Of a stretch of DNA of 64,000 bases, positions 6,159 through 56,610 are shown piece by piece; positions within the stretch are counted from its first letter, which is position 1, and the number at the start of each line of letters is the position of its first letter. Source of the DNA: Candidatus Parcubacteria bacterium (GTDB taxonomy: Bacteria; Patescibacteriota; Minisyncoccia; JACPXH01). Under the pieces are notes generated by a model, which was not told the DNA's origin, did not search any database, and was given only the letters and a program-made list of their open reading frames with translations. Made by a program: the position numbers and the translations under genes. The stretch covers positions 32,660-96,659 of the forward strand of contig JACPXH010000006.1 in the NCBI GenBank assembly GCA_016196625.1. The letters run 5' to 3'.

Positions 6159-6498
6159 GTCATTGCGAGCGAAGCGAAGCAATCTCGAGGAGATCTTGGT
6201 ATGACGGATTTCTACTTTCGATCAGTGCAATCTTTTTCTGACGTGATCCAGCTTTTATTTTCTTTTCGGCAGATATAGCATCTTCCGCAGTAGGAAATGT
6301 TTCGGAATAGACAAGTTTTCCGATCCGATATTTTATCGTGAACCCGTCAGGGGAGCCATTTCGATGTTCGTGCATCCGTCTCATGATGTCATTCGTCACG
6401 CCAGTATAGAAAACAGTGTTCCGTTTATTCGTAGCGATGTATACGAAATACTCTTTCGGCATGAGATTGCTTCGTCGCTTCGGCTCCTCGCAATGACG
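6159..6498. mobile_element. MITE-like element: ~33 bp inverted repeats (GTCATTGCGAGCGAAGCGAAGCAATCTC / GAGATTGCTTCGTCGCTTCGGCTCCTCGCAATGAC) flanking a GIY-YIG gene
   Basis: The inverted repeats abut both ends of the gene exactly: the stop codon lies inside the left repeat (6160-6162) and the start codon ATG (6460-6462) immediately abuts the right repeat. The same repeat pair recurs without cargo at 12760-12848, 14494-14564, 19278-19355, and in degenerate form at 15924-15978. Confidence 0.65.
6160..6462 (-). CDS. small GIY-YIG nuclease family protein
   Basis: MPKEYFVYIATNKRNTVFYTGVTNDIMRRMHEHRNG is a GIY-YIG domain (100 aa). The C-terminal LEIASLRSQ is encoded by the flanking hairpin repeat. 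Confidence 0.75.
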   Translation of the reverse strand: MPKEYFVYIATNKRNTVFYTGVTNDIMRRMHEHRNGSPDGFTIKYRIGKLVYSETFPTAEDAISAEKKIKAGSRQKKIALIESRNPSYQDLLEIASLRSQ

Positions 6499-9812: not shown

Positions 9813-11291
9813 CTAAAGTTTTACCGTTAGCCGCGGACCGACCGGCGTATCTTCCACCATAAACCCAGCAGTTTCGATCTCCGCGCGTTTGGCATCGGCA
9901 GTTTGCCAATTTTTATCCGAACGGGCTTGCTCCCGTTCGGCCAGGGATTCCAGTACTTCTTTCGGTACTGGTTTTGACCAGAGGAAATTGAGCCCGAGGG
10001 CTTCGTCAACAAAGCGGTAGAAGTCGGTGAGCGTGCGGGTGCCTGCACGGGTAAGCTCGCCGCGTTCTTGCAGGTTTAAAAACCGCTCGGTTGTGGTCTG
10101 CAGCGTGGCGATAGCTTTGGGTGTGTCGAGGTCGTCGTTGAGCGCATCCGTAACGGTTCGTTTTACCGCCGCGGCCTGAGACCCGATCAAATCTTTCTCT
10201 GCCTTCGGCCCGCCGCTGTCGGCGGCGAGACTCTTCGTAGCCGGCAATTGCTGCCAGAGCTCCAGTCCGCGAATCTGCTGGGTGAGTGTCCGCCGACTCG
10301 CTTGGGCTGCGGCGAGCGCCTCCAACGTAAAGTTGAGCTTGGAGCGATAATGGGCCATGAGCACGAGGAAGCGATAGTCGAGCGGATCAAAACCTTTTTG
10401 GACGAGGTCAGCAACCGTGTAAAGGTTGCCGAGAGATTTTGACATTTTCTCGCCGTCCACCGTGAGAAATTCGTTATGCAGCCAAAAACGCGCGAGCGGT
10501 TTGCCGTACGCCGCTTCAGACTGGGCGATTTCGTTGGTGTGATGCACCGGAATGTGGTCAATCCCGCCCGTGTGGATGTCAAAAGGCTGGCCCAAATATT
10601 TAACCGACATGGCCGAGCACTCAATGTGCCAGCCCGGGAAACCTTTGCCCCACGGCGATTCCCACTCCATCTGGCGATGTGATTCGGGCGGAGAGAACTT
10701 CCAGAGCGCAAAATCAGTCGGATGCTTTTTCTCGCCCATTTGAACGCGCGCGCCGGCTTCTTGGCCTTCGACGTTAAGGCGGGCGAGCTTGCCATAATCA
10801 GAGAGTTTGGAGGTATCGAAATATATGCCGTCCGAAGTGCGGTACGTAAAACCTTTTGTTTCAAGTGTTTCAACAAGCGCGATCTGTTCGGCAATGTGAT
10901 CAGTGGCCTTAGGCATAACGTCAGGCAGTTTGACGTTGAGCATTTTCAAATCCTTGATGAACTGTTCCGTGTAGAATGCAGCGATTTCCCACGCGGTTTT
11001 GCCCTCGCGTTTCGCGCTCACTTCCATCCGGTCTTCGCCTTCGTCCGCATTTGAAAGCAGGTGCCCTACGTCCGTAATGTTCATTACGTGTTTTACCTCG
11101 TAGCCGTTGAGCTCCAAGACGCGCCGGAGAATGTCCACGAAGATGTACGCGCGCAGATTCCCGATGTGCGCAAAGTCATAGACCGTGGGGCCGCAGGCGT
11201 ACAGGCCCACGCGTTTATCTACGAGCGGGGTAAATAGTTCTTTGGAGCGGGTGAGAGTATTGAATAGCTTCATGAGCTTCTGGAGCTCCAC
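9813..11291 (-). CDS. cysS: cysteine--tRNA ligase
   Basis: Class I HIGH-type motif (HIGN) and KMSKS. The N-terminus ([14 protein letters not shown]) and the zinc-binding region are those of CysRS. Length 492 aa. Confidence 0.9.
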
Positions 11292-11299
11292 TAGCTTCG

Positions 11300-11674
11300 C
11301 TAGCTTTTTGTGGCGCGAGGGTTGAGGGTTTTGATCATAGCGTGAAGCATCTTCATCACTTCAGTAAGAAGTGCCGTTGTCCTTGCGTAATCCAGACGTT
11401 TTGTTTTCGGGAGGCGCTGCGCGATTTCGAGTTGCGTTTCCAGCTCGGCGCCAGAGCTGTACGCGATTCGGAGAAACTGGAGGAAGTCTTGTTTCGTGCC
11501 GCGATGGCGACCCTCTGCAATGTTTGAAGCAATCGTTACCGCTGACCGACGCATCTGGGCGATGAGTCCGTAGATCTCTTCTCGCGGGAATTGTTCAGTC
11601 AGTTCATAAATAGCAACCACCAGTTGGATGGCGCGCTGCCACACAATGAGGTTTCGGTATGAGTGTATCGTCAA
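11300..11674 (-). CDS. four-helix-bundle protein (23S rRNA intervening-sequence protein family)
   Basis: [50 protein letters not shown] matches the TIGR02436-type signature. Confidence 0.8.
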
Positions 11675-11682: not shown

Positions 11683-11760
11683 GACTCGAAAGCTCATAAA
11701 GCTGCAGAAGTTCGTGAAGCTAATGAAGCTGATGAAGCTAGCGAAGCTAGTGAAGCTCGC
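11683..11760. repeat. tandem 9-mer array (GAAGCTNNN)x8
   Basis: gaaagctca taaagctgc agaagttcg tgaagctaa tgaagctga tgaagctag cgaagctag tgaagctcg. Related arrays at 56503-56610. Confidence 0.7.
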
Positions 11761-16977: not shown

Positions 16978-17748
16978 ATGGACGGGCGAACCCAAGGCAT
17001 TCTTTCAACCGTCGTGCGCGAATACATCCGCCGGGCCGAGCCCATTGGTTCGGAGTGGCTGGCCGAGAGTTTTAATTTTGGCATCGCGGCGGCCACCATG
17101 CGTCAAGAGTTGGCGCGTCTGGACGAGTCCGGCTACCTCATGCAGCCGCACACCTCGGCTGGCCGGGTCCCAACCGACAAGGGCTATCGGTTCTTTGTCA
17201 ACCTTCTGTTGGTCGAAGAGCGCCGCGGCCACGAGCGTTTGCTCCAAGCGATGCTCCGACAAGCAGAAGCGTTCGAGCGAGAGCGCCAAGACATCATGCG
17301 GGCTGCCGCCCAGTGGCTCGGCGAGCACTCGCGGAATCTTGGCATGGTGGGCTTATCTGGTGGCGAGGATGGGGTCCTTCGACGCGGCTCAGGACAAATG
17401 CTCTATGCATTTGGTTTCAAGCAACTACTCCGGCAGCCTGAATTAGGCGATGTGCAATACCTTGCCCAAGCGTTCTCGCTTTTTGAGAGCATAGAAGAGC
17501 GGATTGCCGATCTGGTAGACCGTGTGCCGACTGACGCAACCAGTGTTTTCATTGGTCGCGAGAACCCGCTGCGTGAAGCTCGGCAGTGGAGCATGGTGGT
17601 GGGGCAGTTTGAGCGGGCGGGCGGGCCGGGGATGGTGGCGATCGCGGGACCTACTCGGATGGACTACGACCGGAACATTGCGCTCGTGGAAGCGATGCGG
17701 CAGTTTTTGACGGCGAATCAGGAATTAAGAATTAGGAACGATGAATGA
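16978..17748 (+). CDS. hrcA: heat-inducible transcription repressor HrcA
   Basis: Winged-helix N-terminus plus HrcA C-terminal domain. First gene of the hrcA-grpE-dnaK-dnaJ arrangement. CIRCE lies upstream. Confidence 0.9.
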   Translation: MDGRTQGILSTVVREYIRRAEPIGSEWLAESFNFGIAAATMRQELARLDESGYLMQPHTSAGRVPTDKGYRFFVNLLLVEERRGHERLLQAMLRQAEAFERERQDIMRAAAQWLGEHSRNLGMVGLSGGEDGVLRRGSGQMLYAFGFKQLLRQPELGDVQYLAQAFSLFESIEERIADLVDRVPTDATSVFIGRENPLREARQWSMVVGQFERAGGPGMVAIAGPTRMDYDRNIALVEAMRQFLTANQELRIRNDE

Positions 17749-17789
17749 CAGTTTATTGCGTCCCATCCCTTATTCATAATTCCTGATGC

Positions 17790-18326
17790 ATGGTTCAAGA
17801 AGATTCCACGGCGGCTGCAGACGAAGCAAAAACATCCGACGTTACTCCGGCCACCGGAGATGAGTTGGAACAGGTGCGCCGCGAGCGCGACGAATACCTG
17901 GCCGGCTGGCAGCGGGCCAAGGCCGACTTCATCAACTTTAAGCGCGATGCGGAAAAGCTTGCCGGTGAGGTGCAGAAGTTCGCGCGCGAGGAGTTCGTCT
18001 ACCAGCTGCTGCCGGTGCTTGACCACTTCGAGCTGGCCGAAGCGCACCTGCCTCAAGAGCGGAAGAACGATGACTGGGTGAAGGGGATTTTCCAGATTAA
18101 AGTCGAACTGGAGGAGATTTTGAAGCGCGAAGGAGTTGAGGTTATGGCAGCGATGGGCAAACCCTTCGATCCCGAGTTCCACGAGTCGCTGGGCGCGCTT
18201 GAGACCGACGGGCCGGAGAACGTGGTGGTTGATGAGGTGCAGCGCGGCTATGTGTTGAACGGTCGGGTGCTGCGGCCGGCAAAGGTGAAGATATCGGTGA
18301 AACGAATCATGGATCAGGAGTCATGA
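17790..18326 (+). CDS. grpE: nucleotide exchange factor GrpE
   Basis: GrpE coiled-coil (LAGWQRAKADFINFKRDAEK) and C-terminal beta domain (GKPFDPEFHESL). Confidence 0.9.
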   Translation: MVQEDSTAAADEAKTSDVTPATGDELEQVRRERDEYLAGWQRAKADFINFKRDAEKLAGEVQKFAREEFVYQLLPVLDHFELAEAHLPQERKNDDWVKGIFQIKVELEEILKREGVEVMAAMGKPFDPEFHESLGALETDGPENVVVDEVQRGYVLNGRVLRPAKVKISVKRIMDQES

Positions 18327-23481: not shown

Positions 23482-23527
23482 GCGAAATGACAAGTGCCAA
23501 AGCTCAAACAGTATTTGTGAATAATTC

Positions 23528-25033: not shown

Positions 25034-25107
25034 GCGCCCGTAGCTCAGTCCGGTAGAGCAGCTGGCTTTTAACCAGATGGTCGGAGGTTCGAATCCTCCC
25101 GGGCGCA
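25034..25107 (+). tRNA. tRNA-Lys (anticodon UUU)
   Basis: Cloverleaf: acceptor GCGCCCG/CGGGCGC, D-arm GCTC-AGTCCGGTA-GAGC, anticodon loop CTTTTAA (U33, UUU, A37), T-arm GGAGG-TTCGAAT-CCTCC, discriminator A. CCA is not encoded. Confidence 0.85.
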
Positions 25108-25109
25108 CT

Positions 25110-26018
25110 GTGAAAGCGAATGGTTTCCGAGAGGCCTGCCGACGTTTGAGGACGGACGGCGCCACGCTCGGCGAAATCGTGGCTGCAACGAGACGACCGA
25201 AAAGTTCGGTCTACTTTCACATCCAAGACATTAAACTCTCGGAAGAGTTCCGAGAGGCCCAATACGAGCGAGCCACCAAACGGATTATCGAGTTTAACGA
25301 GAGTCGGAGGGGAAAGAGTGCAGCTGGGCGTCATCCGGTTCCGTTCACTGTTTGGACCGTACCATTCGTTGAGCTAGTCAGTCATTTGTTGTTCGACGGA
25401 GAAATAAGTCGCAACGCGTGCGTGTACACCAACCGGAACCGGATGCTGATTCAGCGCGTGGCGCGGTTGATGCGACGAGTATACGATCATCAACCTCGAG
25501 AACTTGAGTCAACGCCGGGGGTGTATCGGATTTCTTATTATAACGTGGAGCTGGCCGCATACTTGCAGGGGAAAGCGGACGAACTTTTGCAGCGGATTTC
25601 AATCGCTCCACAGGAATTGAAGCTAACATTTCTCCGTTCATTTTTCGACGATGAAGGATCGGTTTATTTCATCCGCAGGAAACGACTGGTTCGGGGCTAT
25701 CAGCACAATGACAGCATTCTTAAACTCGTTCAGCAGCTATTGAAAGACTTTAGCATCAAAAGTAAGACTGACAAGAAATACCACGAGATCGTTATTAGTG
25801 GTCGAGAGCATCTGGAGCGTTTCTCGGCCGAGATCAACTTTTCGCCGTCCGTGGCGGTTAACCCGGATCGAAAAAACAGCATTTGGAGGCGGCCGCTCGA
25901 AAAACGCGAGATACTCCGAGTAGCTCTTGCTTCCTACCGCCGCGACGTTGTGGCCACCCGCTGTCCGTCGAGGCCGATAAGCGTAGACGACGTTACTATG
26001 GGCGCACCAAATGTATAA
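25110..26018 (+). CDS. LAGLIDADG-family homing endonuclease (two-motif, free-standing), GTG start
   Basis: Two LAGLIDADG-like motifs ~100 aa apart (VSHLLFDGEIS and TFLRSFFDDEGSV). Basic N-terminal region. The ORF begins 3 nt after the tRNA-Lys 3' end. The upstream part of the track ORF overlaps the tRNA. Confidence 0.5.
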   Translation: MKANGFREACRRLRTDGATLGEIVAATRRPKSSVYFHIQDIKLSEEFREAQYERATKRIIEFNESRRGKSAAGRHPVPFTVWTVPFVELVSHLLFDGEISRNACVYTNRNRMLIQRVARLMRRVYDHQPRELESTPGVYRISYYNVELAAYLQGKADELLQRISIAPQELKLTFLRSFFDDEGSVYFIRRKRLVRGYQHNDSILKLVQQLLKDFSIKSKTDKKYHEIVISGREHLERFSAEINFSPSVAVNPDRKNSIWRRPLEKREILRVALASYRRDVVATRCPSRPISVDDVTMGAPNV

Positions 26019-26615: not shown

Positions 26616-27107
26616 ATGTCCCTACACCGGAAAAAGTACCAAAATGCGGTTCTGTACTTGTGCCGGAAGCTAAAAGGCGAAGTACGCGGCAAGAAAAAGC
26701 TAGCGAAACTACTCTATTTCGCAGATTTTGATTTGTACGAGAAAAGTCAGAAATTAATAACTGGTGATGTTTATTATGCGTTTCCAATGGGGCCAGTGCC
26801 ATCTGCGTTGGAAGCAATTACTGCGGAAATGGCAAAAAAGAAAATGCTCGGTGTTGAGCACGTGGAAGAACGAGAAGGGTACAACCTGACGGAAGTATAT
26901 AAGTGTCTTACTGAACCAGACCTTTCTGTATTTGACGATGAAGAAAAGAAAATGCTTGACCGTATTATCGTAAAATATGGTCATCTAACAGGCAAGCAGC
27001 TAGAAGAGTTATCCCACGCCGAAGCACCATATATCGGTACGGAATTGCGAAAACGAATTCCCTACGAACTTGCCTTCTACCGTGGTACAGATTTTAGTGG
27101 TTCATGA
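26616..27107 (+). CDS. Panacea-domain (DUF4065, SocA-like) putative antitoxin
   Basis: KKLAKLLYFADFDLYEKSQKLITGDVYYAFPMGPVPSAL is the Panacea/DUF4065 core. Overlaps the next ORF by 4 nt (ATGA). Confidence 0.6.
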   Translation: MSLHRKKYQNAVLYLCRKLKGEVRGKKKLAKLLYFADFDLYEKSQKLITGDVYYAFPMGPVPSALEAITAEMAKKKMLGVEHVEEREGYNLTEVYKCLTEPDLSVFDDEEKKMLDRIIVKYGHLTGKQLEELSHAEAPYIGTELRKRIPYELAFYRGTDFSGS

Positions 27108-27560: not shown

Positions 27561-27842
27561 ATATTTTAGAGGTCTTGCGTCTGTCGCGGTTTTCAGCTAT
27601 CTATAGGGAGGGTGTCCTTTTGCAACGAATCGAAGTAGATGATCTCGCTGGAGGACTTTGCCTCGCCCTCCTTGTTATCACGGCCCTTGTAGTTTTTGCC
27701 GCACCACTCGCACCTGATATTCCCGCCTGTTCCGCCTCCGCTCTCCCCAAACAGCCCCTACGTCTCCTCAAACCGCGCCATGGCGAACCTCCTCTCTCGG
27801 GTTCGGGAAGCTGCAGGTTTGCGATTGCTGCTTCGAGGAGAT

Positions 27843-27866
27843 CGTGCGTGCGTGCGTGCGTGCGTG
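27843..27866. repeat. tetranucleotide microsatellite (CGTG)x6
   Basis: Perfect six-unit repeat. Lies inside overlapping + and - ORFs of uncertain reality. Confidence 0.9.
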
Positions 27867-28018
27867 CGGTGCTTTCGCTCATGCCGCGGATCATCCCATG
27901 GTTCATCCGGATACTTCAGAGTAGGCGTCAGCGGCTCGAGGGCCAGGAAGCGATGATTGTCCAGCTTCGCCGGGCTCTCAAGCAGTGATCGTGGGCAGTG
28001 TGAATAGGAGGCAACGTT

Positions 28019-34897: not shown

Positions 34898-36349
34898 GCG
34901 AGGTTGTGGACAAGTGAAACGCCTAAACACGTCGGCAAGACTGTGGAGCTTGTCGGTTGGGTGGCCAACCGTCGCGATCACGGCAAACTGATTTTTTTGG
35001 ATTTTCGTGATCGCAGCGGCGTGGTACAGGCGGTCGTCTCGCCCGAAAACGCCGAGGTGCATGCCGCGGCAGACAAGCTTCGGTCAGAGTGGGTGATTGC
35101 GCTTGAGGGTGAAGTGCGCGCGCGCCCTGAAAAAATGGTGAACCCCGCCATCTCGACCGGTTCGATTGAGGTCGCTGCGACTGCGATTCGCGTGCTCTCC
35201 GAATCCTCAACCCCGCCGTTTCCGCTTGATACCGTCGGCTATGACATTGGCGAGGATAACCGGATGAAGTATCGGTATCTTGATTTGCGCCGCGAGCGGA
35301 TGAAACGCAACCTGCTTTTGCGCCACGAGGTTACGCTCTTTATGCGTAACTGGCTCGCGAAGCGCGGGTTTGTTGAGGTGGAAACGCCGATTCTTACCAA
35401 ATCCACGCCCGAAGGTGCTCGGGATTACGTGGTGCCGTCTCGTCTGCAGGCGGGCAAGTTTTATGCCTTGCCGCAGTCGCCCCAACAATATAAGCAACTC
35501 CTCATGGTGGCGGGGCTTGAGCGGTATTTTCAAATTGCGCGGTGCTTTCGCGACGAAGACACAAGAGGCGACCGGCAGCCGGAATTCACCCAGCTCGATA
35601 TTGAAATGAGCTTTGTAACGCAGGAGGAGATTTTACAGCTGGTTGAAGAGCTGTACGTTGAATTGGTCAAGGTCGTGACCCCGCAGCATCATATCGCGCA
35701 GATACCGTTTCCGCGGCTTTCGTACGAAGAGGCAATGGCTAAATATCAAAGCGAAAAGCCGGATTTGCGCACGGACAAAACCGATAAGAATGAGCTGGCT
35801 TTTGCGTTTATCGTGGATTTTCCGATGTTCGAGTGGAAAGAGACGGAAGAGCGCTGGGATGCGGTGCACCACCCGTTCACGAAAGTTCAAAGTTCAAAGT
35901 TCAAAGTTCAAAGTTCGCAAGAAGAATTTATCGAATATATAAAGCAGAGTCCTGGTGAGTTGATCGCCCAGCAGTACGATTTCGTGTTGAACGGTTTTGA
36001 GATCGGTGGCGGGTCTATCCGCGAGCACAGCCCGAAGATTCTGGAGGCGGTGTTCGAGGTCCTCGGGCATACTCGGGAGGAAATCCATGCGAAGTTTGGA
36101 CATCTGCTCGAGGCTTTTTCTTACGGCGTTCCGCCCCACGGCGGCATCGCGCCCGGCATTGACCGACTGGTGATGGTGCTGGCGGGCGAGGAGAATATCC
36201 GCGAGGTGATTGCATTCCCCAAAACCGGCGACGGAAGAGACCTCATGATGAACGCACCGGCTGAAATTTCAGCCGAGCAGTTGCACGAACTCCACTTAGA
36301 AGTTCTGGGTGAGGGCAGGAAATCCGGTGAGCTCAAAAAATCCAAATAA
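34898..36349 (+). CDS. aspS: aspartate--tRNA ligase
   Basis: OB-fold anticodon-binding domain, class II motifs (QSPQQYKQLLMVAGLERYFQIARCFRDEDTRGDRQPEFTQLDIEMSF and the GGSIREH/GIDRLVM motif 3 region). The insertion domain is shorter than in E. coli AspRS. Start set at MARLW (34898). Confidence 0.9.
   Translation, partial: ARLWTSETPKHVGKTVELVGWVANRRDHGKLIFLDFRDRSGVVQAVVSPENAEVHAAADKLRSEWVIALEGEVRARPEKMVNPAISTGSIEVAATAIRVLSESSTPPFPLDTVGYDIGEDNRMKYRYLDLRRERMKRNLLLRHEVTLFMRNWLAKRGFVEVETPILTKSTPEGARDYVVPSRLQAGKFYALPQSPQQYKQLLMVAGLERYFQIARCFRDEDTRGDRQPEFTQLDIEMSFVTQEEILQLVEELYVELVKVVTPQHHIAQIPFPRLSYEEAMAKYQSEKPDLRTDKTDKNELAFAFIVDFPMFEWKETEERWDAVHHPFTKVQSSKFKVQSSQEEFIEYIKQSPGELIAQQYDFVLNGFEIGGGSIREHSPKILEAVFEVLGHTREEIHAKFGHLLEAFSYGVPPHGGIAPGIDRLVMVLAGEENIREVIAFPKTGDGRDLMMNAPAEISAEQLHELHLEVLGEGRKSGELKKSK
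35882..35916 (+). repeat. in-frame heptanucleotide tandem repeat (AAAGTTC)x5 inside aspS
   Basis: Encodes KVQSSKFKVQSS. A 7 nt unit is not a multiple of 3. Confidence 0.9.
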
Positions 36350-36428
36350 CAAAGCTCAAATGACAAATCGAATCCAAAATCCAAAGCCCAAAACCGTCTT
36401 TTGGCATTTGGGTTTCGGCATTTGACAT
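36338..36428. repeat. degenerate heptamer arrays in inverted orientation (…AAATCCA AAGCCCA AAACCG / TTTTGGC ATTTGGG TTTCGGC ATTTGAC)
   Basis: A 7 bp period of NNNCAAA units is followed by its inverted complement. Spans the aspS stop to the dacA promoter region. Confidence 0.7.
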
Positions 36429-36435
36429 TCCCGTT

Positions 36436-37431
36436 ATGTGGTCTCGTCTAGCCCTCGCGGGCGCCATCTTCCTCGTTTTTGCGGCTAGTCTGTTTGTGGA
36501 CGTGAGAGCGCCCAGACGCCGCGCTTCTCCGGGCGGGCAATTGGCGTCGGTCGGGCAATTGCCGGTAGCTGAAGGTGGAGGGGACATCTTTTTGGAAGCT
36601 GCCACCGCTCTTGATCTTGCGCCGCGGCGGAACTGGCAGACGGCAAACTTTGAAACTTTAAGCCGTGCAGCGGTCGCCGTGCTGCTGGCACGGGGCGAGC
36701 GCAAGAACGATCGGATTCTGCTCCAGAAAAACTTGCTCGAGCGGGTGCCCATTGCCAGTATCACCAAGCTCATGACGGCGATAGTGGCGCTGGATTACGA
36801 TGAGGCTCTACCGTTTGCCGAGCCGGCAGTGATCTCGCGGCAAGCCGCGACCACTGAAGGGCAAAGCGCCGGGCTTATGATGGGCGAGCGTCTGGCGGCT
36901 CAAGACTTGTTGGGGTTGATGCTGGTCGCCTCGGCCAACGATGCGGCCGTGGCGTTGGCGGAGCATGTCGGGCAGGTGGTTGCGCGACCCGGAGAAGATT
37001 CGGTGGCAGCATTCGTGCGGTTGATGAATGATCATAGCCGCATGCTCGGTCTTACCGACACCAGCTTTGCCAACCCGGCGGGGCTGGACGATCCCAATAA
37101 CTATTCGACCGCGGCCGATCTGGTGGAGTTGGTGAAGATATCGCGGCAGTATCCGGCTATTTGGGCGGAGTTGGCGAAATCCTCTCTTGACATAGCGTCG
37201 CTCGAGGGACGCAAGCACCACGTGCAGAGCACAGACGATCTGCTGGGTGTGTTGCCAGGGTTCGAGGGCGGCAAGACTGGCTTTACCTCGGAGGCCGGGG
37301 GAAGCATGGTGGCGGTAACGCGGATTGGTCCCCACGGAGAGGAAGTGGTTACGGTGGTGCTGGGCAGTGCTGACCGCTTTGGTGAGACGAGGCGGCTCAT
37401 CGAGTGGCTGGGACAGGCGTACCTGTGGTGA
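36436..37431 (+). CDS. D-alanyl-D-alanine carboxypeptidase (PBP5/6-type serine peptidase)
   Basis: SITKLMT (SxxK), SANDAA (SxN) and KTGFT (KTG) motifs. N-terminal signal/anchor. Confidence 0.85.
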   Translation: MWSRLALAGAIFLVFAASLFVDVRAPRRRASPGGQLASVGQLPVAEGGGDIFLEAATALDLAPRRNWQTANFETLSRAAVAVLLARGERKNDRILLQKNLLERVPIASITKLMTAIVALDYDEALPFAEPAVISRQAATTEGQSAGLMMGERLAAQDLLGLMLVASANDAAVALAEHVGQVVARPGEDSVAAFVRLMNDHSRMLGLTDTSFANPAGLDDPNNYSTAADLVELVKISRQYPAIWAELAKSSLDIASLEGRKHHVQSTDDLLGVLPGFEGGKTGFTSEAGGSMVAVTRIGPHGEEVVTVVLGSADRFGETRRLIEWLGQAYLW

Positions 37432-37507
37432 GTTTAGTCCCGGTGTTCCCGGGGCCTTTTGTTGGCAGCGATTGTCATTTCTCGGCTTTGGCGCTATAAT
37501 TCCAGTC

Positions 37508-38551
37508 ATGATGGCAGCCAGCGAAGTTGTCCGCATTCTCGCACTCACGACGATCTCGTTCGTCGTGGCCATGCTGGGGACCCCGATCCTCACGCACTTC
37601 CTCTACCGCTACCGTTTGGGCAAGCAAATCCGACAGGATCCCGCCACGCCGATTTATTCAAGCCTGCACAAGGCCAAAGAGGGTACACCCACCATGGGCG
37701 GCATTTTAGTTTGGGGGGTCGCATTTCTTTTGGTTGTGGTTTTCGGTCTTGCGGATCTCGCGTGGCCCGGGAGCGTTTTCGCGAAACTCAATTTCTTGTC
37801 TCGTTCGCAGACATTGCTGCCATTGGGTGCGTTGGTGTTGAGTGCCTTAATCGGCTTGGGTGACGATCTCTTAGGTATTTTCCGAATCGGCCCCAAAGGA
37901 GGAGGGCTCAACATGAAGCACCGGCTCGTGTTATACACCATCGTTGCCGCAATCGTGGCCTGGTGGTTTTACGCCAAGCTTGGCCGGCATGTGCTGCATG
38001 TGCCTTTTGCGGGCAATTTTGACTTGGACGGTTGGTTTATCGCTTTTGCCGCTTTTATTATCGTCGCCACGGCATTTTCAACCAACGAGGCTGACGGGCT
38101 TGACGGTCTTGCCGGAGGGGTCATGCTCATTGCCTACGCGGCGCTGGGCGCAATTGCCTTTCGCGCCGGGCTCTACGATCTGGCTGCGTTTTCCGGAGTG
38201 CTCATCGGTGGCCTACTCGCGTTCCTGTGGTTCAATATCCATCCGGCCCGGTTTTTCCTGGGCGATACGGGTGCCATGTCTCTTGGGGTTACGCTGGGCG
38301 TTATGGCCCTGTTGACGAATACGGCGCTCCTCTTGCCGCTTATCTTTTTCATTCCGTTTTTGGAGTCGGCTTCGGTGATTGCACAGGTGATTTCCAAAAA
38401 GTTTTTCGGCCGGAAGATTTTCCTCTCCACACCCATCCACCACCACTTTGAAGCCTTAGGTTGGCCGGAGTCCAAGGTAACCATGCGGTTTTGGATTGTG
38501 GCAGGCGTGATGGCAGTGGGTGGGGTGATTGCGGTGTTGGTGGGGCGGTGA
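37508..38551 (+). CDS. mraY: phospho-N-acetylmuramoyl-pentapeptide transferase MraY
   Basis: Ten TM helices. Conserved NEADGLDGLAGG and histidine-rich motifs. ATGATG start at 37508. Confidence 0.9.
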   Translation: MMAASEVVRILALTTISFVVAMLGTPILTHFLYRYRLGKQIRQDPATPIYSSLHKAKEGTPTMGGILVWGVAFLLVVVFGLADLAWPGSVFAKLNFLSRSQTLLPLGALVLSALIGLGDDLLGIFRIGPKGGGLNMKHRLVLYTIVAAIVAWWFYAKLGRHVLHVPFAGNFDLDGWFIAFAAFIIVATAFSTNEADGLDGLAGGVMLIAYAALGAIAFRAGLYDLAAFSGVLIGGLLAFLWFNIHPARFFLGDTGAMSLGVTLGVMALLTNTALLLPLIFFIPFLESASVIAQVISKKFFGRKIFLSTPIHHHFEALGWPESKVTMRFWIVAGVMAVGGVIAVLVGR

Positions 38552-38717
38552 GTGGTGTAGCGTTTATCCGAAAACATCTCTAAGCGATCGCGTGAGAATG
38601 TTTTCCGGAAAACTGGAGCGGGGTTTGGAGTTGAACGCTATAGATGTTGGCGGAGAAAAGAGAAGCGACAGGCCCGATCTCGGGCCTGTCGCAGACGTTC
38701 GCGCGGGGCTATCCGTG

Positions 38718-39935
38718 TTACGCGCGCGATTCTAACAGGAAAGAATTGTGGAGTTTGAGGTTCGCCGCACCCCCGTTCACAAACAACTCCACCGAGACGT
38801 CGTAGTGCGTCTCGCGCCACTTTTCGATGTGGTGGCGGGCCCGGCCGAAAATGTCTCGGCCAAGTTCTTCGGCGCAGTCTGCGGGCAGCTCAACCGTGAG
38901 CTCAACCCAGCGGCTCGACCCGAACTCAACCGTCGCAATCTGCTTTGCCTTGCTCACCCTGAATTCGAGTCGAATTTCTCCCAGCACGTAATCCGATTCG
39001 CCGATGCGCTCCACGTTGGAAGCGAGGTTGCCGTCTTCGGGCTGCATTGCTTTGAGCAACGAGGTGAGCCAGACATCGAGCAGAGCGATGCTGTCCGCCT
39101 GCTCTTTGATCCACTGAAGCGTCTCCGGCCGGCACGACCGTTTGTTCGTTTGCTCGAGCCGGTCAAGCGCGGCGAGCGCCTCGGCGTTTCGGATGTCGCG
39201 CTTGGCAAGCTCCGGGCCGCCGCGGCGCGCCCGAGCCATGACGAGCACCCGCTGGATCTCGTCAGGCATAAGGGGCTGCTCGAGCCAGAGTTCGATGGTG
39301 GTATCGGTGGTGATAGGAGGAACGCCGACGTGATCTCGGATGAGACGGAGGATGCGATCCTGTTCGGTCTCAGAGACGAACCGCCCATGCGCTTTCCACT
39401 CGGCGAAGGACTCTCCTTTGCGCAGGTCGTTGCCAGCCGGTCCGGGCCGGTAGGCAGCGATCATGAACCGGAACGCCACGACGCTCTCCTCAGTCGGCCT
39501 CGATGTCCAGTCCTGAATTATGCTGCCGAGCATGGCCAGTTTCGTCTCAAGGAGCGTGCCGTGTCGTGTCGTTCCGGATCCTTTAGTGTCCGGCCAGTGG
39601 CCGTCCTTCACAAGCCGTGCGTCCGGCAGCTGCCAATAGAGTTCCCGCAGGTGTTGGCGGAACTGTTTGTCCGCCTTCGCGAACGCGGCCCGAGCTTGGC
39701 CTCGCGGCTCGTCATGGCACAGGCCAAGCTCGGTTAGTTCGTAGGAGCGGCCGAGCAGCATAACCAGCTCTTCGGCGACTCCGTCGTTATGCGCTTTGGC
39801 TGCGGCCAATAGTGCTCTGGTGAGCACCCGACTGTGCTGTGCTGGCGTTATTTCTTCGCTCGCGTTGAGTAGGTGGGCGGCCAGGAACTGATGGAGATTC
39901 GCTTTCTCTGGATCTACTTCGATCAGATTCTTCAT
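38718..39935 (-). CDS. hypothetical protein (405 aa), high GC
   Basis: Start MKNLIEVDPEK after GGAGGGAAAC. No family recognised. The long + strand ORF opposite is R-rich antisense. Confidence 0.5.
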   Translation of the reverse strand: MKNLIEVDPEKANLHQFLAAHLLNASEEITPAQHSRVLTRALLAAAKAHNDGVAEELVMLLGRSYELTELGLCHDEPRGQARAAFAKADKQFRQHLRELYWQLPDARLVKDGHWPDTKGSGTTRHGTLLETKLAMLGSIIQDWTSRPTEESVVAFRFMIAAYRPGPAGNDLRKGESFAEWKAHGRFVSETEQDRILRLIRDHVGVPPITTDTTIELWLEQPLMPDEIQRVLVMARARRGGPELAKRDIRNAEALAALDRLEQTNKRSCRPETLQWIKEQADSIALLDVWLTSLLKAMQPEDGNLASNVERIGESDYVLGEIRLEFRVSKAKQIATVEFGSSRWVELTVELPADCAEELGRDIFGRARHHIEKWRETHYDVSVELFVNGGAANLKLHNSFLLESRA

Positions 39936-40198
39936 GTTTCCTCCCTGCGGCCGTAGCCGCTCCGCCTCTTGGCGGCTGCCTTCCTGCCCGTAGGCCGGAA
40001 GCCGCGACTGAAAGCCCGTAGGCTCCAGATCGCGGATGTGGTAGTGAAAAGAACCCATCCGCCCTCATGCGGATTGACTCTACGGTATCGTCGTATCTTT
40101 GGGGGTGTCAAGCTAGTGTAGAGTACACATCAATGGGTGACGATTCGCCATGCGAGGGGTGACTAACGCGCAATGCCGCGACCTCAAAAGCTGCGAGT

Positions 40199-40232
40199 CC
40201 ATTCTAATGTATTAATACATTAGAATGATGGT
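40199..40232. repeat. AT-rich palindrome, copy 3 (CCATTCTAATGTATTAATACATTAGAATGATGG)
   Basis: Lies in the divergent intergenic region between 39935 and 40445. Confidence 0.8.
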
Positions 40233-40444
40233 GTTTGCTTGCGAAAAGCTGATTGCGTTGTTCATGTGGTCTAGGGCGGGCGTCGAGTCCGCTGCCGCGC
40301 CAACAATTCTAATAGAATTTGAGTGGGGGGCAGTTACAAGAAGCTTGTAGAAAGCTTGCAGAACGCAGCGCGCTCGGGTTACTGTGGATGCGTCCGCAAA
40401 CCGCTGCCCGGAACAGGGCGGCCAGAAAAGGGAGGAGGGAGGCG

Positions 40445-41227
40445 ATGTTCAATTCGGCATGGGAGGTTGATCGGGGTCGGGTCTTTGAAAACATCGGAAC
40501 GTGGGGGGAGTTTTTGCTCGATTGGGGTCGGAACCGAACCCAGCTGGGAGCGGTCGGGCTTCTCTACGGCGGAACCGAAGTGCCTATCTCGGCCACCACC
40601 CTCGAAGAACGGGCAAGGGAAATTGCCCGGCGTCTGGACTTTTATCTGAAGTGGGCCCTCCAAGAGGAGTGGGCGGCGGAACCGAACACTGCCGTTGCCG
40701 TAACTAGCCAGCAGCTCATCGTCAAGCACTGGCTCAAGGTGTTGATGCGCGCCGCGGATGATTGTTTCTGTGGCAGCCACCAACTCCTGCTCGCCTTTCT
40801 CCACACGCGGTGGCCGTCGCTCCTGGCGCCGCCGTATCCCCGCTTCGTCGCCGAGTACCTCTCTGAGATTTGCCATGTGTGGCAGTTCGGCGATCCTGCG
40901 CGTAGGGATATCAGGTTGCCCATTCAGAACCTTACGGACTTCGTTGTCCCAGCCCTGTGCGTCTGGGGACTCGGCTACAGGTTGGCGGAAGATCATGCCC
41001 GGCCAGATGCCGCCGACATGATCTCGGTTTGGCTTAGGTACAGATCGTACGACCTCTCTTCCGCGATGCAGCACATCTCTGGTTGCGGTCGGCCGTGGGT
41101 TGACCTCCGCCTTGATGTTGACGAAGTCGATGAAGAGGCGAATATCCGGGCAACGCTCGCACTGTTCAAGCTTCGGCATCAAGCCGGCAAGGATGTCCTG
41201 ACCGGATCTCCGAAAGCTCCGTTCTAG
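40445..41227 (+). CDS. hypothetical protein (260 aa), high GC
   Basis: SD AAAGGGAGGAGGGAGG before the ATG. No family recognised. Terminator at 41231-41270. Confidence 0.5.
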   Translation: MFNSAWEVDRGRVFENIGTWGEFLLDWGRNRTQLGAVGLLYGGTEVPISATTLEERAREIARRLDFYLKWALQEEWAAEPNTAVAVTSQQLIVKHWLKVLMRAADDCFCGSHQLLLAFLHTRWPSLLAPPYPRFVAEYLSEICHVWQFGDPARRDIRLPIQNLTDFVVPALCVWGLGYRLAEDHARPDAADMISVWLRYRSYDLSSAMQHISGCGRPWVDLRLDVDEVDEEANIRATLALFKLRHQAGKDVLTGSPKAPF

Positions 41228-41285
41228 CACGGCAGCCCCAGCGAAGATGCTTCGCTGGGGCTGCTTCTCTTTGTGTGGTATAATC

Positions 41286-41320
41286 AAGCTGGTGCAGTCG
41301 TTTTCGTTTTGACATTTGAG
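41286..41320 (+). repeat. heptamer tandem array (TCGTTTT CGTTTTG ACATTTG AGCTTTG AGTTTTG AGTTTCA)
   Basis: Lies between an extended -10 (TGTGGTATAAT, 41271-41281) and the D-aminoacylase start codon. Confidence 0.7.
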
Positions 41321-41343
41321 CTTTGAGTTTTGAGTTTCAGAAC

Positions 41344-42927: not shown

Positions 42928-42953
42928 CGGAGAGTTCAGACGATTCTCATACG

Positions 42954-44255: not shown

Positions 44256-44262
44256 CTGCCAT

Positions 44263-46495: not shown

Positions 46496-46546
46496 CTGCG
46501 TCAAACATGTTTCGGTGATCGCAGTGAAATGTTACGCGGGCGATGG

Positions 46547-46583
46547 CTACTGCCATCGCCCGCTGTCTTTTCGGGTCAAGTAG
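46547..46583 (+). terminator. rho-independent terminator (GCGGGCGATGGC-TACT-GCCATCGCCCGC + TGTCTTTT)
   Basis: 12 bp stem plus T-run after murG. Confidence 0.65.
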
Positions 46584-46735
46584 GTAAAAGAGAAGCGGCC
46601 CGACGGCGAGTGCCGTCGGCCGCTGGTTAGAAGAGCCAGATGACGATGAGGAGCGTAAGGAGGAGGCACGCCCATGCGGCCACACAAGCGACCCTGGCTG
46701 CCTCACGCCTTCTCTCTATTTCCTCCTCAATGCTC

Positions 46736-46858
46736 TTTCGCCGTCATTGGCGCAAAATTGATTTCACCTTCCGATGGGTTCAGCCCAATACCGTACCCGA
46801 AAAGAAAGGCACTGAGTCCAACACCGACGACCAAGACGATGGTGATCATCCGTTCCTC
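46736..46858 (-). CDS. very small membrane protein (40 aa, below ORF-track cutoff)
   Basis: Hand translation MITIVLVVGVGLSAFLFGYGIGLNPSEGEINFAPMTAKEH. Preceded by AAGGAGGAACGG and the hairpin GCCGCCAACGGCGGC. Confidence 0.3.
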
Positions 46859-46905
46859 CTTGCCGCCGTTGGCGGCTGTTTAGGGGGACATCGTGCGAGC
46901 GGTTG

Positions 46906-49086: not shown

Positions 49087-49194
49087 AGAAATCCCAATGT
49101 CAACCCCGTCAGAAAATAAGGTTTTGCCCTATCGAAAGTGGAAGCTTTCTCTTTTAGGTGATGGGTCGAAGAAAGTAAGGCCAACGAGTTTTCT

Positions 49195-49292
49195 AACGGG
49201 GTCAAAATCCAAATACCAAATCAAGCTCAAGGCCAAAAGCTCAAAACAGTTTTGTCATTGGGATTTTGGATTTGATTTGACATTTGAGCTTT
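49195..49292. repeat. inverted heptamer arrays (…CAAAATC CAAATAC CAAATCA AGCTCAA … / TTTTGTC ATTGGGA TTTTGGA TTTGATT TGACATT TGAGCTT TGGCATT TG)
   Basis: Same repeat style as 36338-36428. Located between gltX and the M23 peptidase gene. Confidence 0.7.
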
Positions 49293-50536
49293 GGCATTTG
49301 TCATTTATTTCTCTCCGGGCAGCTATTTTGGCAATCATCCTCGCATTCACGGCGCTGTTGTGGCCGGCATTGGTGCAGGGGGCTCCGATTGACGACCTCC
49401 GACAGCAAATCGAGGCGAAATCCAAAGAGATCCAGAGTCTCGAGGAGGAAGCGCGCAAGTATCAAGCGGAAATCAAGGCGAAACAGAAAGAACAGAACAC
49501 CCTCGCGAATCAAATCATCCAAATTGCAAGCCGCATCGCAAAACTCTCGCTCGACATTCGGCTCACCGAAGCGAAGATTGCCAAGACCGAGTTTCAAATT
49601 GAGCAGATTGCCCTTGAGATCGACCGGCGCAACGAAGAGATTGAAGGCGAGAAGCGAACGTTGGCGCAGGCGATTCGGGTGCTCTCAGCCTACGACGGGG
49701 AAGCGATGCTTGCGGTCGTGCTCAAGAATCCGACCTTCTCCAAGTTCCTCGATCAGGTGCAGTACGTATCCAACCTGCAGGGAGAAATTCAGCGCAAGCT
49801 CGAGAGCGTCAAGTTGCTCAAGGCAAGTCTCGAGGAGGAAAAAAGCGATCTGGAAACAAAACGCGACGAGCTGGACGATCTACGAGGACAGCTCGACGCC
49901 CAGCGGCAGCTCGCCCGCGACCAGCGGAGCGAACGAGAAAGTTTGCTCAAGCAGACACGCAACCAAGAAGCGCGCTACCAGTCGTTGCTGAAAGATATCC
50001 GCAGCCGCCAGCTCGAAATCCAACAGGAAATCGTTGATCTGGAAGAAAAGCTGCGCCGCGCCATTGATCCTTCCGGCGTGCCCGGCGCGCGTCCGGGCGT
50101 GCTCACTTGGCCTCTGGAGGGAGTGTTGAGTCAGGGGTATGGCCCCACTAGTGCTACTGGGTTTACCAATGACGGCTATAAATTTCACAACGGCGTGGAC
50201 ATTGCAGCTGCCTTCGGTAGCCCCGTGCGCGCCGCGCGCGACGGCAAGGTCGTGGGAGTAGGGGACTTGGGCCGGTGGGCCTACGGCCGGTGGGTGGCGG
50301 TCGAACACGGCAACGGACTGAACACGCTCTACGCGCATCTCTCGTTGGCTGCGGCTCGTCCCGGTCAGACGGTTCGACGCGGTGAGATTGTTGGTTATGA
50401 AGGCTCAACCGGCTTTTCCACCGGCCCGCATTTGCACTTTACGGTTTACGCTTCAAGCACTTTTCGTTTCGAGGAGCGGCCATACGGCACGCTGCCGGTG
50501 GGCGGGTCAATCAATCCGCTCGACTATTTGCCGTGA
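49288..50536 (+). CDS. M23-family peptidase with N-terminal signal peptide and long coiled coil (EnvC-like)
   Basis: LytM/M23 catalytic domain (HNGVDIAAAFGSPVRAARDGKV...YAHLS...TGPHLHF). TTG start proposed at 49288. The track's ORF from 49016 crosses the repeat region. Confidence 0.75.
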
Positions 50537-51988: not shown

Positions 51989-52966
51989 ATGATTCATTCT
52001 GCTGCTTCTCCCCAGTCTCATGAGATCGGAACTTCCCTACCAGAGCTCGACGATTTTCTCCTCTCTTTGGAGACGAATGGTTTTTCGCCAGAGACCGTCT
52101 ATAACTACGAGCGCGACTTGAATGCGTTCGCCTACTTCTTGCAGCACGACGTTCGCCTCGATTTTTCTCAGGTCACGAAAATTACCGTTGATCGGTTCAA
52201 GGCCTACTTGAGTTCGTTAGATCGCAAAACGTCGCAGGGGCAGCAGGCGCATGAACGCCTTTCGGCGAATTCGATGAACCGGATGCTTTCCAGTCTGCGT
52301 CGCTATCTTACGTACCTTATCGATCGTGACCTCCCGGTGCCCCTTACGCCGGCGAGCGTCAAATTAGTTAAGACGCCCCGTCGTCATCCGCGCGTTGCGG
52401 AGCTTGAATTGTTGGTAAAACTGATTGAATCGCCGGCGCAGTTTGAACATGTTAACGCCGTGGCGTTGCGCAACCGTGCGATGCTTGAAGTACTGTTTGC
52501 AACCGGCATGCGGATCTCCGAGCTTATTTCGCTCAATCGCAACCAGGTCGATGCTTCCGGCCGCATTTTCATCCGTGGCAAGGGCAAGAAGGAACGGTTC
52601 GTATACTTGACCTCGCGTGCAAAAAGACACATAGATAAGTACTTGTCAATACGTGCTGACAGCCACCCGGCTCTTTTTATCCCCTACCGCGGCCAGAACG
52701 TCGCAAGTACGCGCACCCGCATCTCGTCCAATTACCTCCAGATGAAAATCAAACAGTACCGCGAGCGTCTGGGCATCAACGTGCCCACCTCGGCCCATTC
52801 GCTCCGGCACGGCTTTGCGACGTATCTGGCCGAAGCTGGAGCAAGCCCGGCCGCGATTCAAATTCTACTCGGGCACGAGTCGCTCGATACGACGACCCGG
52901 TATGTCCACGCCTCGGATCGGTACGCCGAAGAGACGCATCGGAAGTTTCACCCTTTGAAAAAGTAG
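51989..52966 (+). CDS. tyrosine site-specific recombinase (XerC/XerD-like)
   Basis: N-terminal SAM-like domain and C-terminal catalytic domain with R...HxxR...Y (GMRISEL, HSLRHGFATYL, TTTRYVHAS). Confidence 0.85.
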   Translation: MIHSAASPQSHEIGTSLPELDDFLLSLETNGFSPETVYNYERDLNAFAYFLQHDVRLDFSQVTKITVDRFKAYLSSLDRKTSQGQQAHERLSANSMNRMLSSLRRYLTYLIDRDLPVPLTPASVKLVKTPRRHPRVAELELLVKLIESPAQFEHVNAVALRNRAMLEVLFATGMRISELISLNRNQVDASGRIFIRGKGKKERFVYLTSRAKRHIDKYLSIRADSHPALFIPYRGQNVASTRTRISSNYLQMKIKQYRERLGINVPTSAHSLRHGFATYLAEAGASPAAIQILLGHESLDTTTRYVHASDRYAEETHRKFHPLKK

Positions 52967-54825: not shown

Positions 54826-55218
54826 TTATGGACAGTTCGCCGCTTTCGTGTATCCGGCTTGCTCTGCCTCCGCGATCGTCGCAAACCAAATGCGGTTTTC
54901 TGGTTTGATGCGGTTGGCAGACGCGCAATCCTTCGGGTAGTAGCGTTTGCCGTTGCGGCTCGCAAGGAAATTCCCTTGCGCTTGGGTTTTTAACTGTTGA
55001 CTTGCGGTTTGGCTGCTAGCAGTGCTCCCCTCTTCCCGGACAAATAGTTTTTGCAGGTCCACTTCGTGGAGCGTAACCGGCGGTTTCGGATGCGGCGTAG
55101 TGAGCCGCCCGAGGCCGAAACTTCCGAGCGCCACAAGACCAACTGCAAGACCCACGAGAATGTCGCGCTGCCAGTCGGCCCAGAGGACCTTGATTTTCTC
55201 GAGGAAGTCAGCTAACAT
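54826..55218 (-). CDS. membrane-anchored protein with C-terminal Ada-like metal-binding ('YxxxC...RpC') domain
   Basis: N-terminal TM helix. C-terminus KRYYPKDCASANRIKPENRIWFATIAEAEQAGYTKAANC resembles the Ada N-terminal zinc-binding / 'sunset' domain family. Confidence 0.4.
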   Translation of the reverse strand: MLADFLEKIKVLWADWQRDILVGLAVGLVALGSFGLGRLTTPHPKPPVTLHEVDLQKLFVREEGSTASSQTASQQLKTQAQGNFLASRNGKRYYPKDCASANRIKPENRIWFATIAEAEQAGYTKAANCP

Positions 55219-55222: not shown

Positions 55223-55317
55223 AAGCTTTTAGCTTCTAGCTTTTAGCTTTTAGGACGAGACGATTGGTCGCATCACATTCGGAAGCTAAAAGCTATAAGC
55301 TAACAGCTAAAAGCTAA
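55223..55317. repeat. inverted heptamer arrays (AAGCTTTT AGCTTCT AGCTTTT AGCTTTT AG / ~30 bp loop / AAGCTAAA AGCTATA AGCTAAC AGCTAAA AGCTAAG)
   Basis: Near-perfect long imperfect hairpin that fills the divergent region between the 54826..55218 gene and rpmA. Confidence 0.75.
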
Positions 55318-56229: not shown

Positions 56230-56499
56230 TTACTTAATTTCGAATTCGCTGAATTTTCCTGTCGCTTCACTCCATTCGAATTCCACTTTCTCCACTCGTG
56301 CCCAGCGCGGCCCAGTATAGCACCATTCCAAAAATGCTTTCAAGTTTTCCTCGGCGCCCTCCGCTACGATCGAGACGTTACCGCCCGAATCGTTGCAGGC
56401 CCAACCAGTAAGACTCAGTTCAGCCGCCCGCTCCTGCGCCGAGGTTCGGAAGAATACGCCCTGGACTAACCCGTGGACGGTAATGTGGAGACGCTTCAC
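56230..56499 (-). CDS. acyP: acylphosphatase
   Basis: VHGLVQGVFFRTSAQ ... GWACNDSGGNVSIVAEG is the acylphosphatase signature. The track ORF extends to 56553 through the 9-mer repeat array, so the start is probably a GTG near 56499. Confidence 0.7.
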   Translation of the reverse strand: MKRLHITVHGLVQGVFFRTSAQERAAELSLTGWACNDSGGNVSIVAEGAEENLKAFLEWCYTGPRWARVEKVEFEWSEATGKFSEFEIK

Positions 56500-56502
56500 C
56501 GT

Positions 56503-56610
56503 AGCTTCATTAGCTTCGAGAGCTTCACTAGCTTCACGAGCTTTGCGCCACACGTTTTTGGAAAGCTAACGAAGCCAAAGAAGCTAGCGAAGCTTCTGAA
56601 GCTACAACCC
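56503..56610. repeat. inverted 9-mer arrays (TAGCTTCAT TAGCTTCGA GAGCTTCAC TAGCTTCAC GAGCTTTGC / spacer / AGCTAACGA AGCCAAAGA AGCTAGCGA AGCTTCTGA AGCTACAAC)
   Basis: Same GAAGCT-based 9-mer unit as 11683-11760, present here as an inverted pair. Confidence 0.7.

Follow-up and report, generated by a model that had tools for sequence, protein, structure and literature searches.

Inverted short-period tandem arrays between protein genes of a Parcubacteria chromosome segment resemble the arms of S23p-type rRNA intervening sequences

Tandem arrays with units of 7 and 9 bp recur in the spacers of a 64,000-nt stretch of DNA from a Candidatus Parcubacteria bacterium (assembly GCA_016196625.1, contig JACPXH010000006.1, positions 32,660 to 96,659 of the forward strand; the window in what follows), mostly as inverted pairs. 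We propose, with about even confidence, that these arrays are the paired arms of palindromic insertions of the intervening sequence (IVS) type, which are insulated by their own structure and occupy stop-to-start junctions between Parcubacteria protein genes. The window elements are best read as a chromosomal, intergenic counterpart of the S23p-type rRNA IVSs, and they come in gene-carrying and gene-less forms. The gene-carrying form lies at 11266-11760, between corA and cysS, where inverted 9-mer arrays stand on either side of a PF05635/TIGR02436 gene that sits in the loop and encodes an Avd-like S23p, or '23S rRNA intervening sequence protein'. A first-pass annotation of the same DNA had correctly recorded the 9-mer array at 11683-11760, but it overlooked both the inverted partner at 11266-11306 and the gene between them.

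The encoded protein matches Pfam PF05635 (E = 3.9e-35), TIGR02436 (119.9 bits; cutoff 24) and the pentameric S23p of Xanthomonas (PDB 2GSC, E = 4e-21), with a further bAvd-like match (E = 1.9e-6). Its cassette takes up exactly the spacer between corA and cysS: the TAG with which corA ends (11760-11762, minus strand) abuts the proximal arm, and both the S23p stop (TAG, 11300-11302) and the cysS ATG (11273-11271, minus strand) fall within the distal arm. The calculated duplex energy of the two arms is -60.6 kcal/mol. The distal arm can be aligned with the arms of a Saccharibacteria metagenome-assembled genome (MAG) and a Microgenomates MAG, in which the same 9-mer arms, again inverted, flank S23p genes with 68-69% protein identity. 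It can also be aligned with a gene-less hairpin at 56.5 kb of the window, whose arms match those around the window S23p gene unit for unit and whose right arm can be aligned with the arms of the two MAGs as well.

The 23S rRNA IVS of Coxiella burnetii is 428 nt long and contains an S23p open reading frame (ORF), and the inverted repeats at its ends make up a 28-bp stem; GACAGAT heptamers, two or three in tandem depending on the strain, stand just before the ATG of the ORF, and the IVS is cut by RNase III in vitro, the 5' cut falling at the first heptamer (PMC4990558). Apart from its location, the gene-carrying window element has the same anatomy. It shares with the rRNA IVSs of Coxiella burnetii and Leptospira a sense S23p/PF05635 ORF in the loop (in the window, at 11266-11760 only), terminal inverted repeats with a stem that reaches about 28 bp or more (stems in the window are about 25-45 bp) and short repeats before the ORF that vary in number. 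These repeats are heptamers in Coxiella, whereas the window copy has 9-mers and most homologues have periods of 7 and 8. The window elements differ in lying outside rRNA, not at helix 9, 25 or 45 but between protein genes from stop to start, and in having arms that are longer arrays with many unit types, 8- and 9-mers included.

Arrays were detected over the whole 64-kb window with Tandem Repeats Finder (TRF) and a lag-match scan, and the expectation was taken from composition-preserving shuffles. At one threshold, lag 7 gave six regions and lag 9 gave five, against about 0.04 expected, so that the intergenic family of 7- and 9-bp arrays reported in the first-pass annotation is real. Lags 5, 6, 10 and 12 gave no region in the same scan; one region was found at lag 8 (27833-27878, a 4-bp CGTG repeat) and one at lag 11 (13051-13090). 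The elements are spread over at least eight spacers of a chromosome segment rich in housekeeping genes. Their position in stop-to-start spacers, or at 41.3 kb in a 5' leader, agrees with what had been described, as do the false N-terminal extensions and spurious ORFs that they create. An array had been said to be followed by its inverted complement at four sites, and folding gave long hairpins at four (36.3, 49.2, 55.2 and 56.5 kb); a further hairpin, between hrcA and grpE (z -4.1), had been missed. Unit sequence varies from site to site (AGCTTYN, CAAANNN, GAATTAR), with no common consensus. At gathering thresholds, Rfam found one tRNA in the window, nothing at the arrays and no rRNA.

Table 1. 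Positions of the tandem-array features and the S23p gene in the window; the period of each TRF array is given in brackets
Feature	Position	Strand	Setting	Found by	TRF array (period)	Extent, TRF and lag scan
Distal arm, 9-mer array AGCTTCNNN x4.6	11266..11306			TRF, lag-9 scan, sequence	11266-11306 (9)	11266-11306
S23p/four-helix-bundle gene, 124 aa	11300..11674	minus	In loop, same orientation as corA and cysS			
Proximal arm, 9-mer array GAAGCTNNN	11683..11760		corA stop to just before S23p start	TRF, alignment	11715-11757 (9)	11699-11763
Gene-less heptamer hairpin, GAATTAR-type units	17714..17790		Between hrcA (stop 17746-17748) and grpE (ATG 17790)	Lag-7 scan; fold z -4.06		
Weak AAANNNN-type stretch	23483..23527		Fills spacer from dnaJ stop to ATG of NYN gene			
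In-frame (AAAGTTC)x5 in aspS	35882..35916	+	Directly after HHPFTK motif	TRF, 100% matches		
CAAANNN/NNNTTTG heptamer arrays	36338..36429		Fill spacer from aspS stop (36347-36349) to dacA ATG (36436)	TRF	36371-36393, 36400-36429 (7)	36371-36429
Single TTTGAGN heptamer array	41296..41342	+	5' leader of D-aminoacylase gene (ATG 41344)	TRF, lag scan	41306-41337 (7)	41300-41342
CAAANNN/NNNTTTG heptamer hairpin	49195..49306		Upstream of M23 peptidase gene	TRF, folding	49275-49306 (7)	49274-49309
55.2-kb left arm, TAGCTTY x4.3	55224..55253		Between divergent 130-aa gene (ATG 55218-55216, minus) and rpmA		55224-55253 (7)	55215-55259
55.2-kb right arm, RAAGCTA x5	55283..55317		Ends 3 nt before rpmA ATG (55321)		55283-55317 (7)	55279-55324
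56.5-kb left arm, AGCTTCNNN 9-mers	56488..56546		Between ctpA and acyP		56502-56543 (9)	56499-56549
56.5-kb right arm, GAAGCTNNN	56561..56605		Outermost unit supplies ctpA TAG stop (56604-56602, minus)		56563-56594 (9)	56563-56605

Gene-less IVS hairpins exist in other bacteria, and two of the gene-less hairpins in the window, at 55.2 and 56.5 kb, are built of the unit family that also makes up arms around S23p genes, both the window gene and others. The 55.2-kb hairpin (55215-55325) folds at -42 kcal/mol with a z of -6.9 (-6.9/-7.9). It is not an assembly artefact, since an independently assembled Logan contig has it base for base. The 56.5-kb hairpin (56485-56605) folds at -54.5 kcal/mol (z -6.1), and the acyP GTG (56499-56497, minus strand) stands at the base of its stem, 2 nt beyond the left arm. 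For the CAAANNN/NNNTTTG hairpins at 36.3 and 49.2 kb the link to S23p is indirect, through anatomy and position only. The first has its core at 36368-36425 and a z of -2.8 (fold of 36325-36435); the second, at 49190-49310, has a z of -1.3 on the plus strand and -2.8 on the minus strand, and the M23 peptidase gene probably starts at a TTG (49298) in the last unit of the hairpin's right arm. Canonical terminators were found at 41231, 46536, 38692 and 53015 in a terminator and promoter consensus scan of 36200-56100, a range that excludes the 56.5-, 11.3- and 17.7-kb elements, and none of the array hairpins within it is terminator-like (GC-rich stem, short loop, U-tract).

Homologues of the S23p gene show that this arrangement is common around the family. 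A protein scan of species-representative genomes returned eight loci, from Saccharibacteria, Microgenomates, Peribacteria, Aquificota, Flavobacteriaceae and unclassified MAGs, and short-period arrays bracket the S23p gene in essentially all of them. The architecture is thus not lineage-specific, as the first-pass annotation had suggested, since it recurs at PF05635 genes in each of these named groups and also in the Coxiella IVS (PMC4990558). A metagenome scan yielded at least 550 S23p relatives, from which 80 non-redundant loci (metagenomes and MAGs) were kept. In 71% of these 80 loci the upstream flank aligns with the reverse complement of the downstream flank at a score of at least 30, a score reached by 0.2% of shuffled arms, by 1.8% of comparisons with the same geometry elsewhere in the loci and by 7.5% in direct orientation. 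The aligned stem has a median of 32 bp (58 homologous loci). These alignment scores and same-geometry controls replaced RNA duplex energies with mismatched-locus controls, which were inflated because many loci share unit types. Strictly periodic flanks were found upstream in 28 of 84 cases and downstream in 35 of 87 (33-40%), against 1.8% of 595 control windows, with periods at this strict threshold of 7 (47 cases), 8 (13), 9 (one) and 12 (two). In at least nine loci the S23p gene has TAGCTTY/RAAGCTA units on its flanks, the type seen in the 55.2-kb hairpin. Of the 223 arrays in the 622 kb surveyed, 101 are no more than 200 nt from an S23p gene and 44 more form gene-less inverted pairs.

The arms of the homologous loci are also placed with respect to codons. 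The outer end of the upstream arm falls within 10 nt either side of the preceding stop codon in 27 of 48 cases (median -1.5), and in 23 of 45 the downstream arm has its outer end within 10 nt either side of the first possible start of the following gene (median +4). TAG is the commonest trinucleotide in upstream arms (5.8%) and CTA in downstream arms (5.9%), and 47% of upstream arms have every one of the three frames closed, compared with 21% once they are shuffled; any unit of 7 or 8 nt that contains a stop codon has this effect automatically. In 81-86% of cases an S23p gene has the same orientation as its neighbours, which may reflect ordinary operon structure only. In locus L045 every spacer of an operon resembling a type IV secretion system (PrgI/VirB4-like) is a 97-nt array hairpin, with an S23p gene in one spacer, and a 36-nt arm is identical in two hairpins of this operon. 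As in L045, every spacer of the PrgI/VirB4-like operon of L021 (4890-5745) is an array hairpin of about 97 nt. In L012 (3900-4460) a gene-less hairpin lies directly before and another directly after the S23p gene.

Comparison with relatives showed that element positions can stay stable for long while their units turn over in concert, and that elements are also gained and lost. Relatives with 74-89% protein identity still have hairpins in the rpmA, ctpA-acyP and aspS-dacA spacers, built of other units in other numbers. In L090 and L091 (CtpA 89% identical) the rpmA-spacer hairpin has TAGTTTT/TGGTTNT (AAAACTA-type) units instead of TAGCTTT and about nine units in each arm, against five in the window; 7 of 49 pairs are changed on both sides and the fold of the relative has a z of -6.8. 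The ctpA-acyP hairpin is kept in both but is shorter, with a weak fold in L090 (z -1.7). The first-pass annotation had called for a comparison of array lengths between strains; unit numbers do vary between these relatives. In L096 (AspRS 74% identical) the aspS-dacA spacer keeps a longer CAAANNN/NNNTTTG hairpin (z -4.2/-5.1). The corA-cysS spacer was found in three states: in the window it contains the S23p cassette, in L095 a gene-less CAAA/TTTG hairpin of 127 nt (z -4.7), and in L094 neither of the two. Instead, L094 carries between dnaB and recR, exactly from the stop of the one to the ATG of the other, an S23p cassette whose arms are heptamer arrays; this relative lacks the hrcA-grpE hairpin, the spacer there being 10 nt.

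One explanation for these data is that an IVS-type element would be co-transcribed with its host operon and that its two arms would pair into a duplex of 25-45 bp. This duplex would extrude the insert and bring the flanking stop and start codons together, so that the insertion would hardly disturb how the flanking genes are expressed, in a genome most of whose genes have no Shine-Dalgarno sequence. By analogy with the rRNA IVSs, the duplex may be a substrate of RNase III. The arrays would grow and shrink by slippage, and 7- or 8-nt units with TAG or TGA would close all three reading frames.

Several observations weigh against this proposal. Transcription, pairing and cleavage of the elements as RNA are steps that we infer, and ORF scans found no RNase III gene in the window. 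Arm mismatches show no excess of G.U pairs on the S23p sense strand (75 sense, 97 antisense, p = 0.11), which lends no support to RNA-level selection on that strand. At 55.2 kb the hairpin stands between divergent genes and neither mRNA need include both arms; a DNA-level origin fits better there. The 41.3-kb array is a single one, with no hairpin at 41280-41345 on folding. CAAANNN/NNNTTTG units stand beside no S23p gene in the sampled loci, and this sample of homologues is biased to one subfamily, having been chosen by the peptide patterns IYELTEQF and VWQ. S23p ORF remnants in the loops of the gene-less hairpins amount to an unconvincing 8-nt match, GCGCCACA, at 56.5 kb.

Because of the missing sense-strand G.U excess and the hairpin between divergent genes, we keep as the main rival a model of mobile palindromes that act at the DNA level, which we consider rather doubtful. 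Cassettes and derivatives resembling miniature inverted-repeat transposable elements (MITEs) would be moved or copied as DNA, the hairpin or cruciform being the substrate of a trans-acting recombinase or of a replication-linked process, and the complementarity of the arms would have no RNA role. In its favour are the presence or absence, and the three states, at identical junctions of relatives, the operon in which two hairpins have near-identical arms of 36 nt, and the same arms around 68-69% identical S23p genes in different classes of the candidate phyla radiation (CPR). The lack of strand bias in wobble-compatible arm changes also agrees with it, as does a GIY-YIG cassette that has other inverted repeats, occupies the same dnaB-recR junction and likewise has an empty copy. 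However, no transposase, dedicated integrase or REP-associated tyrosine transposase (RAYT; REP, repetitive extragenic palindromic) stands beside any copy, the only recombinase of the window being Xer-like (a tyrosine recombinase, 51989..52966), and no target-site duplications were seen. Several of the hairpins are, moreover, old at orthologous sites and have compensatory arm changes, which require selection or continual arm-to-arm correction. The inverted arms do recall MITEs, but no target-site duplication is recognizable at the stop and start junctions and the loops are not conserved.

The GIY-YIG cassette (6134-6505, minus strand) consists of a 100-aa ORF (6160..6462; PF01541, E = 9e-15) within the inverted repeat TCATTGCGAGGAGCCGAAGCGACGAAGCAATCTC / GAGATTGCTTCGCTTCGCTCGCAATGA. 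It fills the spacer from the dnaB stop to the recR ATG, the junction at which L094 has its S23p cassette. Its repeat also occurs in a copy without a gene, at 12740-12850, which folds at -51 kcal/mol (z -5.1) and is contained in an unusually long non-coding stretch of about 1 kb after corA (12705-13755), which has no Rfam match. At 13046-13076 an 11-bp repeat, TATATTGGTAG x2.7, overlaps TTGACA/TATAAT-like boxes. PADLOC gave no defence-system match for the S23p protein, the GIY-YIG protein or the 130-aa protein encoded beside rpmA. The gene for the latter (54826..55218, minus strand) had been labelled Ada-like. It matches nothing in Pfam and scores below threshold with the NCBIfam 'sunset domain' (24.5 bits, cutoff 27), so that this label falls; it is conserved beside rpmA in L090 and L091.

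Another possibility, which we regard as unlikely, is that the arrays are autonomous cis-acting elements of leaders and intercistronic regions that tune translation or coupling in a genome poor in Shine-Dalgarno sequences, and that S23p genes merely settle there. Cyanobacterial short tandemly repeated repetitive (STRR) sequences, which are heptamer direct repeats, and the TAACTGA heptamers of Beggiatoaceae would be the precedents. Heptamer direct repeats that end at start codons are found in Beggiatoaceae and cyanobacteria; the TAACTGA repeats of Beggiatoaceae end about 1 nt before start codons, and 1 of 170 repeat sets in the Beggiatoaceae genome is inverted (PMC4679880). The window arrays likewise consist of tandem 7-nt intergenic units that are oriented towards start codons and end near them, and TAACTGA carries stops too. 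Most window genes have no Shine-Dalgarno sequence, and CAAANNN/NNNTTTG arrays were never found beside an S23p gene in the sample. Also in favour of this reading, the 41.3-kb array follows an extended -10 box, TGTGGTATAAT (41274-41284), and a canonical terminator (41231-41265), and this leader of promoter plus array is conserved in L096 (12649-12718). STRR and TAACTGA repeats differ, however, in having one or few unit sequences genome-wide in overwhelmingly direct orientation, and no S23p link has been reported for them; the window has several families, mostly in inverted pairs. An autonomous cis-acting role would leave unexplained the reverse-complementary arrays around S23p genes in 71% of loci, the differences in unit between sites of one genome and the array within the aspS coding sequence.

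That array, (AAAGTTC)x5, follows the HHPFTK motif at the usual place of the insertion domain in bacterial AspRS. It is a heptamer array as the first-pass annotation had stated, although its unit is not the same as AAAGCTA. At the same codon position L096 has (AAATCCG)x4.5 (about 9030-9062 of L096). L097 has a longer, unrelated insert at this place of aspS.

It is very unlikely that the arrays are neutral, slippage-prone microsatellites of AT-richer spacers that have neither function nor relation to genes. Unit number and sequence do vary between relatives and an array is tolerated inside aspS, but the enrichment in the window is confined to lags 7 and 9, the arms remain complementary while their units are replaced, and the arrays are strongly associated with one gene family. 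Random placement with respect to gene starts and identical unit counts in all relatives, the signs of neutrality that had been proposed, are not what was found: the arrays sit with precision at stop and start codons and counts differ between relatives. The weak copy that had been listed at 23483-23527 does contain an AAANNNN-type stretch, but neither TRF nor the lag scan called it and its fold (23478-23535, z +0.3) is not significant alone. The iteron-like binding arrays that the first-pass annotation had suggested, taken here as sites for a replication or partition protein, are hardly credible: short tandem direct repeats do occur at several loci, but the units measure 7-9 bp rather than about 17-22 bp, differ between sites and stand in inverted pairs dispersed over at least eight housekeeping spacers with no origin context, and no rep or par gene was found near the arrays among the 60 window ORFs scanned against Pfam. 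CRISPR-like (clustered regularly interspaced short palindromic repeats) and integron attC readings were dropped, there being no spacers, no cas genes and no intI.

The IVS-type reading can also be set beside other known systems. The suggestion of a REP-type element was right in so far as the window elements are short, imperfect intergenic palindromes, many per genome as in REP sequences and bacterial interspersed mosaic elements. They are not classical REPs, which have a genome-wide consensus of 20-40 bp and a RAYT; the window stems are internally tandem with no common consensus, and no RAYT or transposase was found among the 60 scanned ORFs. RNase III processing hairpins lie between the cistrons of phage T7 early mRNA, and the window elements, as long hairpins between cistrons of one transcript, may work likewise; T7 sites, however, are single-copy and specific, have neither tandem-repeat stems nor a loop gene, and are not polymorphic insertions. 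The loop gene is homologous to avd of diversity-generating retroelements (bAvd-like, E = 1.9e-6), but it scores 26.7 bits with NF033474, below the equivalog cutoff, and has no adjacent reverse transcriptase or template/variable repeat pair. A full-text search found no paper on non-rRNA S23p genes with tandem-repeat arms or on gene-less array hairpins of CPR bacteria, which is absence of evidence only. The FLSHclust CRISPR paper only lists '23S rRNA IVP' in a figure legend.

Some further features of the window were noted. Of about 30 gene start regions, most have no Shine-Dalgarno sequence, a clear AGGAG being present only at dnaK. A -10-like box stands 7-14 nt before the ATG of rmuC (1827), hrcA (16978) and aspS (34832), and such proximity suggests that these mRNAs may be leaderless or have short leaders. 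The only tRNA (Lys-UUU, 25034-25108) is overlapped at its 3' end by a LAGLIDADG_3 ORF (25077..26018, E = 1.5e-10); the dnaB of L094 carries a LAGLIDADG intein, which the 548-aa dnaB of the window lacks. A perfect (CGTG)x6.5 at 27843-27868 is in a segment of lower GC (26-28 kb, GC 0.49) that also holds an ORF with a SocA/Panacea antitoxin domain (26616..27107).

Recognition of the IVS-type hairpins matters for annotation, as they yield false N-terminal extensions and spurious ORFs in CPR genomes, and short-period arrays might mislead repeat and CRISPR finders. A wider proposal, which we offer as tentative and on the whole doubtful, is that S23p genes with their tandem-repeat arms are widespread, cross-phylum, self-insulating mobile cassettes that home to RNA helix tips and stop-start junctions. 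The rRNA IVSs would then be the special case that came to light first, the Avd-like pentamer that the loop gene encodes would have the arms as its target, whether for binding, spread or maintenance, and the gene-less CPR hairpins would be non-autonomous progeny. PF05635/TIGR02436 is a very large family without known function, and where rRNA intervening sequences come from and what they are for have been open questions since about 1990. The IVS architecture around most sampled S23p genes, the gene-less hairpins at CPR gene junctions and the co-evolving arms tie these two puzzles together and provide testable substrates.

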